The notes: generated from the letters alone by a model not told the origin. Numbered from the stretch's first letter, positions 1 through 9,918 are shown. The stretch is DNA of 64,000 bases from a virus (IMGVR_UViG_3300020045_008999:64001-128000); one strand, 5' to 3'. Made by a program: numbers and translations.

Positions 1-221
1 ATGTTCGGGTTTATGATATATTGGTTTTTTTTATTTATTACACTATTTAAGCACAATGTCTGAAAACACCACAGTCATACAACCGAACATGTGGTTAAAC
101 CACTTGAACGACTTTTTAAATGTTGTATGTATTGTATTTGTTCTCATTATTGTATATATTAACTTTTTTTTCTTCCTTTTGATTATTATAGGACAAATGT
201 ATAAAAAAGTTCTGAAATAAA

Positions 222-4747: not shown

Positions 4748-5233
4748 ATGGAAAGTGCTATAAAAATGGAATACATGGGATTGGTTAATTTCACAACCCC
4801 TGATGGATCTAAACAAAAAATTTATAGAGATTTGGTTCTCAAAACAAACACCTCGTTAGTTTCAGAATCAACTGATGATCTAGAAGAATCTATTGAATAC
4901 CTTGGCGAAGTGCAAACACTAAAATTTAAAAAAGGTGATAGCGTAGGTTTTTTATATTGTGCGGATGATTTCGATGACAGCATTTATGACACTGCGTATA
5001 GTTTAGACGCACAAATCACGTTTATCAATGAGGGCTCAATTCAACATAACGGGGAAGATGATGCAAGTGGTGAGGTGAATAGTTATGTCATTATGTTAAA
5101 CGATGAAAAATTTCTATCAGATAGCGGGGAGTTTTCAATAATCACTAAAGAAAATCAAGATAAATCCGAGTTGGATAATATCAATAAGGCTCTTGGCAAA
5201 GATTTCAAAGCAATAATTTGGTCGATGGTGTAG
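4748..5233 (+). CDS. hypothetical protein
   Basis: 161-aa acidic ORF after promoter box. Confidence 0.7.
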   Translation: MESAIKMEYMGLVNFTTPDGSKQKIYRDLVLKTNTSLVSESTDDLEESIEYLGEVQTLKFKKGDSVGFLYCADDFDDSIYDTAYSLDAQITFINEGSIQHNGEDDASGEVNSYVIMLNDEKFLSDSGEFSIITKENQDKSELDNINKALGKDFKAIIWSMV

Positions 5234-5309
5234 TACCCGGCTGGTTTTCTGTTGTGTAAGAAAACCCAAATGTAATGGATTCAGAACAATAAAAACTAAA
5301 TACAAGATT

Positions 5310-5717
5310 ATGCCAAAATCAAATAGTCAAGAAGAGGTTAGTAAGCAAGCAGTTGTAAGTATTTCGGCTGGATTATCAGGGAAAGCGAAAGAAGCGTTTG
5401 AAGATTGGTTATTTACAACTCGAAATGAAGAAATAATCGATGGTGAAGCAAAATATGATCTATATTACATGTTTATGTATATGTTGCCAGAAACTTGTAA
5501 AAACGCATTGATAATAGAATGGTTCGACAGCGAGGAAATATATTGTTATTTTGATTGTCAATGGAGTAGCATTTATAATATATGGTGGAGATTTCATTTA
5601 TCTGGTAAAAGGATAAAAGAGAATATAGTAGTTAGCGATTTTAAAAATAGGCAAGATGCTATAAATGCAAGTATTGAAAAGGCAGTAGAAATCTACAATA
5701 CGGAATCTGGATACTAA
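5310..5717 (+). CDS. hypothetical protein, paralog of 23499..23864
   Basis: Shared FExWL / IxEWFD / AxxxAIExAxxxYN pattern. Confidence 0.7.
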   Translation: MPKSNSQEEVSKQAVVSISAGLSGKAKEAFEDWLFTTRNEEIIDGEAKYDLYYMFMYMLPETCKNALIIEWFDSEEIYCYFDCQWSSIYNIWWRFHLSGKRIKENIVVSDFKNRQDAINASIEKAVEIYNTESGY

Positions 5718-5790
5718 CATATTGTGTAAATTTGTTATAAATATTAGAAAAATTACAAAAGGAAGTAGAATAAATTAATATATACTAAAT

Positions 5791-5862
5791 ATGAAAACTA
5801 TTAACAACACATCTAGTTCGTCAAGACGCTCAATTCCGAGTGAGGTTCATCTGTGTTTATAA
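5791..5862 (+). CDS. putative attenuator leader peptide (MKTINNTSSSSRRSIPSEVHLCL)
   Basis: 23-codon ORF not in the track; TCT AGT TCG TCA AGA CGC TCA run; AATATATA motif at 5777-5784 upstream; terminator and tRNA genes downstream. Confidence 0.7.
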   Translation: MKTINNTSSSSRRSIPSEVHLCL

Positions 5863-5881
5863 TAATCATAAAAATATTATC

Positions 5882-5915
5882 AAACCCCTTGGACTAAAAA
5901 TTCAAGGGGTTTTTT
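5882..5915 (+). terminator. intrinsic terminator (attenuator) upstream of tRNA cluster
   Basis: AAACCCCTTG / CAAGGGGTTT 10-bp stem followed by T tract, 12 nt before the first tRNA. Confidence 0.85.
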
Positions 5916-5927
5916 GTTATAAAAAAT

Positions 5928-6021
5928 GGAGAAATAAGCCGAAAGATTCTGGGTATCGGCAGCATTCTTGAAAAATGTTAATCCTTTAAAGGGTGTGCGG
6001 GTTCGAATCCCGCTTTCTCCG
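5928..6021 (+). tRNA. tRNA-Ser (anticodon UGA)
   Basis: GGAGAAA/TTTCTCC acceptor, GCATT-CTTGAAA-AATGT anticodon arm, long variable arm, GGTTCGAATCC T arm; enlarged D loop. Confidence 0.85.
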
Positions 6022-6026
6022 CAAAT

Positions 6027-6099
6027 AGTTCCAAAGCTCAAATGGACGAGTCCCCGAATACGGATCGGGTGGTTGTGGGTTCGAATCCCATTGGAACTT
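6027..6099 (+). tRNA. tRNA-Arg (anticodon ACG)
   Basis: AGTTCCA/TGGAACT acceptor, GCTC/GAGT D stem, CCCGA-ATACGGA-TCGGG anticodon arm, GTGGG-TTCGAAT-CCCAT T arm; atypical A8 and A32. Confidence 0.8.
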
Positions 6100-6107
6100 C
6101 TAAATAT

Positions 6108-6193
6108 AGGGAAGTAAGCATAGTGGTACTGCAGCGGTTTGCTAAATCGTTCACCGTTCATTCGGTGCGTGGGTTCGAGTCCCACTTTCTCTG
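6108..6193 (+). tRNA. tRNA-Ser (anticodon GCU)
   Basis: AGGGAAG/TTTCTCT acceptor, GCGGT-TTGCTAA-ATCGT anticodon arm, long variable arm, GTGGG-TTCGAGT-CCCAC T arm. Confidence 0.85.
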
Positions 6194-6260
6194 CTAATTT
6201 TTAGTATCATTGTCATTTATTTTATGTATTTTTGTTGTGAAATTAATTTAATTAAATAGT

Positions 6261-6785
6261 ATGGAAAAATTATTTGACGACACGTCGTTTATTGTGGATA
6301 AAAGGCCTTTGGAAATCACCGAGCAGCAAAGAGAATCAATGTTTATAACTTTGGCAAACCAAGTTATTGAATATAATTATTCTAATGATGATGTTGAGAC
6401 CATTGCATATGATTTAGCGCAATTATCAAAGTATGATACTGGATTTGATAGAGCAAAGGATTTGGAAGATAACGGGAATGGTGATTATACATTTGATGGT
6501 GAATTCATAAGTTGGTTGGATAATATGGATTACGAAGAACGATCAATTTTATCAAAAAATGTAAAGTTATGGGTGAGCGTATATAACCCGCAACCTAAAT
6601 TTGAAATAGGTGATGAATTGATAATAAATTCAAGGCTGAACTCAAAAATGCCTGTGGGTTTGGTAATTTATATCACCAGCTTTCTAATGGAAGAAGCATT
6701 GTATACAGTTTCTGCCAATAAAGATGAACAAGGTGGGTATATGATACCATTCGAATACGTAGAGGATAAATGTCGTAAGCTATAA
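6261..6785 (+). CDS. hypothetical protein
   Basis: 174-aa ORF followed by terminator hairpin. Confidence 0.75.
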   Translation: MEKLFDDTSFIVDKRPLEITEQQRESMFITLANQVIEYNYSNDDVETIAYDLAQLSKYDTGFDRAKDLEDNGNGDYTFDGEFISWLDNMDYEERSILSKNVKLWVSVYNPQPKFEIGDELIINSRLNSKMPVGLVIYITSFLMEEALYTVSANKDEQGGYMIPFEYVEDKCRKL

Positions 6786-6797
6786 ATACTATAACCA

Positions 6798-6825
6798 AAA
6801 TAAAGAACCTAATGGTTCTTTATTT
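6798..6825. terminator. bidirectional terminator
   Basis: AAATAAAGAACC-taat-GGTTCTTTATTT between convergent genes. Confidence 0.75.
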
Positions 6826-7014
6826 AATTGTATCGAAGTATTCTCTTATCTCATTTTCATATTCTGGATGCATTTCAATATAAACTTCCAGTTTATCTAA
6901 TTTATCTTCTAAATTGTTTGATTTTGACATGTCTATGTCTGAATAAATGTCATTTAGAATTATATCTAAATCATTAGTATGAGTGCTCTCATTAAATCGC
7001 TTAAGGTGTTTCAT
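6820..7014 (-). CDS. small protein with capsid-targeting-like N terminus
   Basis: Starts MKHLKRFNES; AATATATA motif upstream. Confidence 0.65.
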   Translation of the reverse strand: MKHLKRFNESTHTNDLDIILNDIYSDIDMSKSNNLEDKLDKLEVYIEMHPEYENEIREYFDTIK

Positions 7015-9129: not shown

Positions 9130-9918
9130 TTATTGTAAGCCATCATTGATTTCAGAGATTAGTTCATCAAAATTATGCTCATTTAGTGACAAATCATTAT
9201 TCCAGATTTCAAAATGTCGTTGGTATTTTAGAATTATTCTAATGTGTATAATATTTCTTCTTAGTTGTTCTGGTAGGAATATTGATGCTATAATTATGTT
9301 TCCATTCACTTCGATATCAATATCACCGGAATACGTTGATTTTAAAAATTGTGAGTGACATATGAAATTTCCCTTAATATATTCGGGTGCCCCTAATAAC
9401 GATTCGAATGTATTTCCAGAACATACTAAGTCACCATCTATTTTACTAGGTAGTCCAATTAGGGTGGTTAAATGATTATTGTTACACATAATTCCACCGG
9501 TCACAACGCCAATTGCATTTAGGTTAACTAGCTTATTATTAACACACACTAAATCCCCATTGATTGTAGCTGGTAAACCTTCTAATGATTTTAATAAGTT
9601 ATTGTTGCACTGATAGTCACCAAGTACTATTTGTGGCCCACCGATCAATGATGTTATGATATTATAAGCACATGAGAATTTGCCATGTACTTCTATGGGA
9701 AACCCATTGCATGAAGTCAGTGAGTTGAAGCTAACTTTGAAGTCGCCCCTGATTTTACCAAACTGAATTGTAAAATCAAATAAATCTTTTTTATATAAAT
9801 TAACATTATCATTGACATCGACAGTGCCCAAGGAATTTACTACAACGTCGCGTATTAAATTTTCTCGACAGAATAAATCAATGCGATCTTTCTCATTTTT
9901 GGAAATTAAGTTTTTCAT
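9130..9918 (-). CDS. LRR-like repeat family protein
   Basis: MKNLISKNEKDRID N-cap, 22-aa repeats, LKYQRHFEIWN..EINDGLQ C-cap. Confidence 0.9.
   Translation of the reverse strand: MKNLISKNEKDRIDLFCRENLIRDVVVNSLGTVDVNDNVNLYKKDLFDFTIQFGKIRGDFKVSFNSLTSCNGFPIEVHGKFSCAYNIITSLIGGPQIVLGDYQCNNNLLKSLEGLPATINGDLVCVNNKLVNLNAIGVVTGGIMCNNNHLTTLIGLPSKIDGDLVCSGNTFESLLGAPEYIKGNFICHSQFLKSTYSGDIDIEVNGNIIIASIFLPEQLRRNIIHIRIILKYQRHFEIWNNDLSLNEHNFDELISEINDGLQ

Follow-up and report, generated by a model that had tools for sequence, protein, structure and literature searches.

Background

Leader-peptide attenuators are known from amino-acid biosynthetic operons, where they include trpL, hisL, leuL, thrL, pheL and the multivalent ilvL. 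The pheM leader of Escherichia coli attenuates pheST, which encodes phenylalanyl-transfer RNA synthetase; it is chromosomal, senses a single amino acid and has the synthetase protein as its output. T-box riboswitches, which have no leader open reading frame (ORF), bind uncharged transfer RNA (tRNA) directly and carry conserved Stem I and T-box motifs. To our knowledge, no attenuator is known for the tRNA genes of phage T4. The present analysis concerns a stretch of 64,000 nucleotides (nt), IMGVR_UViG_3300020045_008999:64001-128000, in which a short ORF with a run of serine and arginine codons, followed by an intrinsic terminator, precedes the genes for tRNA-Ser(UGA), tRNA-Arg(ACG) and tRNA-Ser(GCU). 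Sequence comparison and RNA modelling suggest, with a probability of roughly 0.85, that this Ser/Arg unit and the other units of its family are ribosome-mediated (leader-peptide) attenuators, which would turn on the transcription of tRNA genes when the matching codons are decoded slowly.

The whole stretch, referred to below as the window, covers bases 64001-128000 of the genome of an uncultured megaphage, and coordinates are those of the window unless marked as genome. This genome is a single contig of 596,785 base pairs (bp) with 31.9% GC, and contains 18 tRNA genes and a gene for transfer-messenger RNA (tmRNA). In a search of sequencing runs the window sequence was found only in DNA runs from river, freshwater and biofilm metagenomes, of which it formed a small share.

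The Ser/Arg unit and its paralogues

A preliminary description of the locus, made from the sequence alone, had reported a 23-codon ORF with Ser and Arg codons at codons 8-14, a terminator and three tRNA genes, and all of these features were recovered at the same positions (Table 1). The leader peptide contains six Ser and two Arg residues, and its regulatory run consists of four different Ser codons, AGA, CGC and one more Ser codon. Under relaxed wobble, the downstream tRNA trio reads six of these seven codons, that is, all except AGA, as had been proposed. Scored for runs of codons that its own three tRNAs can read, the Ser/Arg leader comes 1st to 4th among the 2,534 short ORFs of the genome. 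The start, frame, stop and Ser/Arg run of the ORF are kept in orthologues from the huge phages LR745206 and LR756502 and from two IMG/VR contigs. The terminator stem (5882-5912) comprises 12 pairs, the hairpin alone having an energy of -15.4 kcal/mol and the entire leader one of -28.8 kcal/mol (z = -3.45, 200 shuffles).

Inspection of the 330 nt located 5' of every tRNA cluster in the genome revealed that 16 of the 18 tRNA genes stand behind four paralogous units, each composed of a leader ORF, a terminator and tRNA genes. The common layout includes an AGGAAG box, a TATATAC box, an ATG opening the sequence M-K/R-T/N, the short ORF, the terminator, and tRNA genes beginning 10-15 nt past the T-run. 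The 597-kb genome has precisely four places where a TATATAC box follows 6-14 nt after an AGGAAG box, all of them at tRNA leaders, and of its 236 strong terminators just the four of these units have a short ORF of this kind in front. In the leader before the Val-Leu-Ile-Leu-Arg(UCU)-Asn-Cys-Thr cluster, 24 successive residues are drawn solely from N, L, T, I, V, C and R, while the leader before tRNA-Gln has three Gln codons within seven. For runs of codons of their own cluster, all leaders are at or near the top of the 2,534 short ORFs (7.9e-4, 1.2e-3 and 7.9e-4, with 0.076 for the single-tRNA Gln unit), and the four score low against the codon sets of the other clusters. Each of the 16 tRNAs located behind a leader has at least one cognate codon in that leader. 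The tRNA-Tyr, tRNA-Met and tmRNA genes are without a leader and have a promoter-like box directly before the gene.

Table 1. Positions of the Ser/Arg unit and of the neighbouring paralogous unit in the window
Feature	Position	Strand	Remarks
End of hypothetical protein-coding sequence (CDS)	5717	+	reading of 5400-6500
Candidate promoter -7 box TAAATTTG (Bacteroidota-type TAnnTTTG motif), in AT-rich spacer	5727..5734	+	57 nt 5' of leader ATG; presumed promoter
AAAAGGAAG box	5757..5765	+	AGGAAG-type box of tRNA leaders
TTAATATATAC box	5775..5785	+	5 nt 5' of leader ATG; general gene-start box of the phage
Leader ORF, 23 codons and stop	5791..5862	+	ORF call; orthologous ORFs in relatives
Regulatory codon run TCT AGT TCG TCA AGA CGC TCA (peptide SSSSRRS)	5812..5832	+	codons 8-14
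Predicted antiterminator strand (segment 2), complementary to terminator 5' arm	5834..5848	+	duplex energy and folding
Intrinsic terminator	5882..5915	+	5' arm 5882-5893, loop, 3' arm 5901-5912, T-run 5910-5915
tRNA-Ser(UGA), 12-nt D-loop insertion	5928..6021	+	Rfam tRNA model, 41.3 bits; ARAGORN 5940-6022
tRNA-Arg(ACG)	6027..6100	+	ARAGORN and Rfam, 47.4 bits
tRNA-Ser(GCU)	6108..6194	+	ARAGORN and Rfam, 44.3 bits
Neighbouring unit, terminator 5' arm	1..11	-	remainder before window start
Neighbouring unit, leader ORF, 34 codons, run FKKSFKWF..H..F	43..147	-	would gate tRNA-Trp/Phe/His/Lys at genome 63661-63970, just outside the window
Neighbouring unit, TTAATATATAC box	153..163	-	also AAAAGGAAG box 172-180 and TACATTTG box 194-201

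Leaders in related megaphages

By DNA comparison, LR745206 (635 kb) and LR756502 (642 kb), both uncultured huge phages, are the nearest relatives. The LR genomes originate from Al-Shayeb et al. 2020 (PMC7162821); genomes larger than 634 kb all belong to the 'Mahaphage' clade, with Bacteroidetes as predicted hosts (PMC7162821; PMC9723777), and Mar_Mega_1 (OU342829) is a marine sister megaphage (PMC9723777). The tRNAs of LR745206, LR756502, LR756501 (735 kb) and LR756504 (636 kb) were listed with the Rfam tRNA model, and every cluster region was inspected. In these four genomes most tRNA sub-clusters have a terminator and a short ORF upstream. Together with IMG/VR contigs, which contributed eleven units found by leader-start patterns, the four genomes (634-735 kb) yielded at least 35 further units, bringing the family to about 40 units in megaphages of 597-735 kb. 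The IMG/VR pattern matches L003, L032, L035, L036, L038 and L040 were discarded as ordinary long ORFs or coding sequence. The design, for which the preliminary description had proposed a comparative search in related phages, thus recurs, with four units in this genome and many in the huge phages and IMG/VR contigs.

Where the relatives group their tRNAs differently, the leaders differ correspondingly. The simpler cases include SKSSSRSSS before Arg/Ser tRNAs, HK.F.K.HKWF before His/Phe/Trp/Lys, YESYYEE before Glu/Tyr, QQIQQQQ and QQQQQQQ before Gln, and PQPQDQDP before Pro/Asp with Gln following or interleaved. Leucine-rich leaders are represented by L..NLLNSLCLL, located upstream of five Leu tRNAs, and LSLCLSLSLSL, upstream of Leu/Ser/Cys tRNAs. 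An I.IAVIGNGAGAI leader, with ATA codons, precedes Ile(UAU)/Gly tRNAs, and IAMIIRMRIIR precedes Arg/Ile/Met. Further leaders are IINMIQEQMQQIQ (Met/Gln/Ile/Glu), TTIIRNMNNNINRTRTT (Thr/Asn/Arg), IAIVEIAVIGGAEEG (Glu/Ala/Ile/Val/Gly), KKQQYKQYQPQYK (Tyr/Gln/Lys) and TPAPAVAFRRGTGTGTGT (Arg/Thr/Val/Ala/Gly/Pro).

Match between leader codons and downstream tRNAs

The match was evaluated using wobble rules and a background codon usage taken from long ORFs. In the leader frame (frame 0) of 28 units, 291 of the 761 codons are cognate to the downstream tRNAs, against 116 expected, whereas shifting the reading of these nucleotides to frame +1 or +2 leaves 105 and 79 cognate codons, respectively, against 112 expected. 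Since the excess occurs in frame 0 only, the signal resides in the codons of the translated frame and not in base composition. Synonymous choice also tracks the anticodon: for Ile, ATA is used with Ile(UAU) and ATT with Ile(GAU), and for Arg, CGN accompanies Arg(ACG) or Arg(UCG) and AGA accompanies Arg(UCU). Anticodon species are present in their own leader in 108 of 119 cases, compared with 48% in other leaders of the same genome.

The preliminary description had pointed to covariation of leader codons with downstream anticodons in relatives as a check on its reading, and the outcome was strongly positive: in five genomes, the true assignment of leaders to clusters was the single best of 24, 5040, 5040, 6 and 5040 permutations. 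LR756504, with different groupings, provides an independent test, while LR745206 and LR756502 are not mutually independent because they have orthologous units in common. As a negative control, the small CDSs abutting tRNA genes in Vibrio phage Thalassa were scored and showed no codon match (z from -1.1 to 1.8), so that small ORFs beside tRNA genes are not codon-matched by default.

Predicted switch between terminator and antiterminator

Each unit has a hairpin followed by a U-run (-11 to -22 kcal/mol), and the last third of each leader ORF contains a segment complementary to the 5' arm of the terminator. For the Ser/Arg unit, pairing of segment 5835-5847 with this arm had been suggested from the sequence; duplex calculations confirmed it with nearly the same limits (5834-5848 with 5882-5893), at -11.7 to -12.2 kcal/mol compared with a shuffle mean of -4.6 (p = 0.003). 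Arm complementarity exceeds that of dinucleotide shuffles in most units (Fisher combination about 5e-17 for 27 units, the units not being independent), and pairing is stronger with the own arm than with the arms of other units (mean -10.4 vs -7.4 kcal/mol, permutation p = 5e-5). The Asn/Leu/Val class has three terminators of unrelated sequence, each with a leader segment to match, which in sequence terms is compensatory change. Column-wise covariation in a MAFFT alignment of five Ser/Arg leaders was dropped because the stems were one column out of register with respect to the relatives, and duplex energies within and across sequences were used instead.

Folding of the full-length RNA at equilibrium with ribosome masks did not discriminate between ribosome positions, because the terminator dominates; the nascent RNA, ending before the 3' arm, was therefore folded with a 28-nt mask. 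Over 27 units, the arm was paired upstream with a mean probability (P) of 0.73 when the mask lay on the regulatory run and of 0.42 when it lay on the last four codons (Wilcoxon p = 6.6e-7). In the Ser/Arg unit, segment-arm pairing reached P = 0.85-0.88 with the ribosome at codons 9-11 and fell to 0.01-0.25 from codon 15 to the stop. This modelling reproduces the behaviour postulated in the preliminary description, namely an antiterminator left free by a stall on the Ser run and covered later, and its attenuation reading is supported by these predictions together with the comparative sequence data.

Proposed mechanism

The probable start of transcription is the TAAATTTG box (5727-5734), 5' of the leader, and a ribosome would translate the 23-codon leader while RNA polymerase proceeds to the terminator. 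If Ser (TCN, AGY) or Arg (CGN) codons are decoded slowly, the ribosome would stall at codons 8-14 and leave segment 5834-5848 free to pair with the 5' arm 5882-5893; the terminator would then be blocked, and polymerase could enter the genes for tRNA-Ser(UGA), tRNA-Arg(ACG) and tRNA-Ser(GCU). With fast decoding the ribosome would cover the segment, the terminator would form and tRNA synthesis would stop. Because the product is the thing sensed, such a unit would place the decoding capacity for one codon group under negative feedback, and the sequences indicate that the phage probably makes each tRNA set just when its ribosomes run short of it. In this scheme we infer leader translation, regulated readthrough, the identity of the polymerase and the natural cause of slow decoding. 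Possible causes of the latter include a supply of host tRNAs that does not fit the AT-rich codon usage of the phage, loss or cleavage of host tRNAs, and poor charging; rescue from anticodon nucleases may be one among several triggers.

Several observations weigh against attenuation of this kind. No tRNA of the Ser/Arg cluster, tRNA-Arg(ACG) included, reads the AGA codon of the leader. Even with no ribosome on the nascent RNA, the Ser/Arg antiterminator is predicted to form (P = 0.69), which means that there is no strong 1:2 hairpin. At equilibrium, ribosome position makes no difference to terminator formation in the full-length RNA for three of the genome's four units, where the terminator always forms; control must therefore be kinetic, as in trp and the classical attenuators. 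Complementarity is no better than in shuffles in the LR745206 Gln unit, in two IMG/VR units of the Pro/Gln/Asp class and in one of the two units of the Glu/Tyr class, that of LR756502. In the Asn/Leu/Val class the stop codon is too far downstream for a terminating ribosome to cover the segment. The TAnnTTTG motif is not enriched across the window (119 matches vs 104 +/- 11 expected), and the motif alone is therefore not used as evidence for a host or a promoter; the promoter, the transcribing polymerase and the Bacteroidota host are presumed.

Alternative explanations

The same architecture could follow another logic, in which translation of the leader is needed for readthrough, by blocking Rho or opening structure, so that good decoding would mean ON, or in which processing or stability of the RNA is controlled. 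Without a ribosome, the terminator arm stays free in the nascent RNA of three of the genome's four units (P of upstream pairing 0.07-0.20), so some translation would be needed for any readthrough, and ORFs of the Asn/Leu/Val class extend well past the antiterminator segment, both of which agree with this logic. In most units, however, the antiterminator is promoted by a ribosome mask over the regulatory codons and weakened by one placed further along the ORF; cognate codons in a row would have no purpose unless stalling is read out, and a canonical hairpin with a U-run indicates intrinsic termination. These points make the alternative unlikely.

An even smaller chance is given to the idea that the hairpin is an ordinary terminator of, or insulator against, upstream transcription, with a short ORF that arose by chance or is untranslated, and with tRNAs arising from incomplete termination or from a promoter that escaped recognition. 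Intrinsic terminators are indeed common in the genome, as counted above, and the terminator is thermodynamically dominant in the full-length RNA. However, the terminator lies 164 nt past the stop of the upstream CDS, with the leader ORF between them, and the frame-specific codon match extends over about 40 units, where it tracks changes in tRNA content; the short ORFs beside the tRNA genes of Thalassa show no such match. A motif scan from the leader to the first tRNA gene found no promoter-like site on the + strand between 5786 and 5927. In particular, a separate promoter between the terminator and the tRNA genes, which the preliminary description had regarded as fatal to its reading, is not predicted, and the gap from the end of the T-run to the first tRNA (5928) is only 12 nt. 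A plain insulating terminator was rejected on this evidence.

Direct RNA-RNA contact between tRNA and an untranslated, T-box-like leader is highly improbable and was likewise rejected: T-boxes also join tRNA sensing with a terminator/antiterminator pair, but neither a T-box nor any known leader family was recovered, with only sub-threshold matches at E <= 1, the elements, just ~130-180 nt in length between the pre-ATG box and the U-run, contain many codons for up to eight tRNAs, and the signal is confined to the frame of the conserved ATG and stop. Equally improbable, and also rejected, is that the ORFs encode functional micropeptides whose composition resembles the tRNA sets by chance, since, despite an N-terminus M-K/R-T-I/M-N kept among paralogues, past the first five residues just membership of the amino-acid set is kept while sequence, length and order vary, and synonymous codons follow the anticodons, which peptide function does not require.

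Implications

If the attenuation proposal is correct, the units represent a natural, virus-encoded feedback control of tRNA supply, codon group by codon group, which would explain why huge phages that carry 18 to 66 tRNA genes do not synthesise tRNAs needlessly. It would also allow prediction, from sequence only, of which phage tRNAs are co-regulated and which codons are treated as at risk. This touches the debate on why phages carry tRNAs, whether for compensation of codon usage or for escape from tRNA-targeting defences. As compact, programmable sensors of decoding speed at chosen codons, the leaders may also find use in synthetic biology.

A broader and decidedly more tentative idea is that the units are modular closed-loop cassettes of sensor and tRNAs, in which the speed of the ribosome on a checklist of codons would release the tRNAs that repair the deficit. 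Such cassettes might serve as an automatic counter to host tRNA loss, caused by anticodon-nuclease defences or by a host shut-off that the phage induces, might evolve by tRNA reshuffling with rewriting of the leader, and might be wired in series (Pro/Asp, then Gln).

With regard to series, in both LR745206.1 (L017) and LR756502.1 (L023) a Pro/Asp unit, whose leader also has Gln codons, is followed by a poly-Gln leader with its terminator and then by Gln tRNAs, and no promoter-like box was seen between the Pro/Asp unit and the short poly-Gln leader.

Promoter-like boxes, gene-start boxes and further loci

Of the 14 leaders that LR745206 and LR756502 have between them, 10 have a TA[TC]ATTTG box 26-119 nt on their 5' side, and the remaining four belong to internal units that come after another tRNA block. 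A TAnnTTTG-type box is also located before the promoter-only tRNA-Tyr and tmRNA genes of the present genome. The tRNA-Tyr, tRNA-Met and tmRNA loci (genome 20977-21222 on the - strand, L007, and 411350-411712 on the + strand, L008) have in common the promoter-like box GTAC(A/C)TTTGT..TATAATAA, which ends 3-8 nt upstream of the mature 5' end of the tRNA or tmRNA.

The TTAATATATAC box is found in about 178 copies genome-wide with one mismatch allowed, mostly (well over 100 copies) 3-30 nt before the ATG of ordinary genes, and it is enriched in the window (9 matches vs 3.1 +/- 1.7 expected). In the form TTAATATATA(N), this over-represented box was recorded in the window at 5775-5785 and at 153, 7034, 13139, 25331, 31311, 38628, 40642 and 42464; it could be a phage-specific promoter for near-leaderless messenger RNAs or an element of translation initiation in a host that works without Shine-Dalgarno sequences. 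The AAAAGGAAG box lies ~9 nt 5' of the TATATAC box at all four tRNA leaders, an arrangement seen nowhere else in the genome, and relatives have AAAGGGA-like boxes in the AAAAGGAAG position. The genome also contains a large family of paralogous genes with the N-terminus M-K-N-L-I-(S/N)-K-E-E-K-D-R-I-D, each directly behind a TATATAC box; examples on the - strand are located at genome 157742-164022, 132049 and 77148, and the window ORF 9130-9918 (-) is a member.

The genes flanking the Ser/Arg unit are hypothetical, with a NUMOD4 endonuclease and a D12 methyltransferase nearby. The start of tRNA-Ser(UGA) is placed at 5940 by ARAGORN and at 5928 by Rfam; many Vibrio phages carry tRNAs about 80% identical to it, under annotations that differ between Ser, Leu and Gly.

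Three other loci of the relatives deserve mention. In an orthologous unit of LR756502.1 (L022), an acidic ORF, open for at least 55 codons, lies between the terminator (1794-1823) and the first tRNA (2056), and with this arrangement both a protein gene and tRNAs would be under the control of the attenuator. An Ile/Cys/Asp/Asn/Tyr tRNA cluster of LR756501.1 (185500-188300, - strand; L045) is without a leader ORF and has a GC-rich, structured segment of ~90 nt directly upstream, which might be a different kind of regulatory RNA. The same 735-kb phage contains two adjacent tRNAs with a CUA anticodon (690000-691000; L051), that is, amber suppressors, called Pyl by ARAGORN, behind a direct promoter-like box, which hints at TAG recoding in LR756501.

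Comparison with known systems

A literature search found no publication on attenuation of tRNA genes, in phages or elsewhere. PMC9723777, PMC7162821 and PMC3082878 describe no attenuators before tRNA genes, and the word stem 'attenuat' does not appear in PMC7162821. Attenuation was found described for protein-coding operons only, and the control of tRNA genes by a regulator that reads the abundance of its own product appears to be new.

Among phages, tRNA clusters are likewise phage-encoded in the T4 tRNA region and in the T5-like Vibrio phage Thalassa. In Thalassa, however, the tRNAs are interspersed with CDSs of 50-95 amino acids that end a few nt before a tRNA, leaving no room for a terminator, and the codon match is absent. 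T-box riboswitches resemble the megaphage units in that the state of tRNA is sensed and a terminator/antiterminator switch is used; no T-box match was obtained at E <= 1 in the region 5000-7000, and, as noted, the codon signal is restricted to the ORF frame. At the Ser/Arg locus, the Rfam models of known leaders scored below their cut-offs (His_leader RF00514, 25.1 bits vs 49; trpB motif, 27.3 bits vs 59), and at the gathering threshold the only families matched by 11 related loci were those of tRNA.

The pheM leader resembles the phage units in that a leader-peptide attenuator controls a component of the machinery that decodes the sensed codons; its output, however, is the synthetase protein and not tRNAs. 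Like the leaders of biosynthetic operons, the units combine a short, presumably translated ORF that holds regulatory codons with a terminator before the regulated genes and a competing antiterminator that depends on the position of the ribosome, and, as with ilvL and thrL, several amino acids would be sensed together. The features of the attenuator class are found here in turn: a short ORF with a usable start stands before the regulated genes, its regulatory codon run is tied to those genes, an intrinsic terminator lies between with no predicted promoter, and an exclusive, ribosome-dependent antiterminator is obtained by computation, being weak or absent in a minority of the related units. The Ser/Arg unit falls outside the classical biosynthetic leader families, its downstream genes being three tRNAs. 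Unlike those leaders, the phage units would regulate tRNA genes and no protein, with feedback on tRNA supply instead of amino-acid synthesis; the megaphage element is phage-encoded, and one leader may serve up to eight tRNA species for seven amino acids. The parts themselves are thus best described as a leader-peptide attenuator, and what appears to be new is that the output of the proposed ribosome-mediated attenuation would be tRNA genes.

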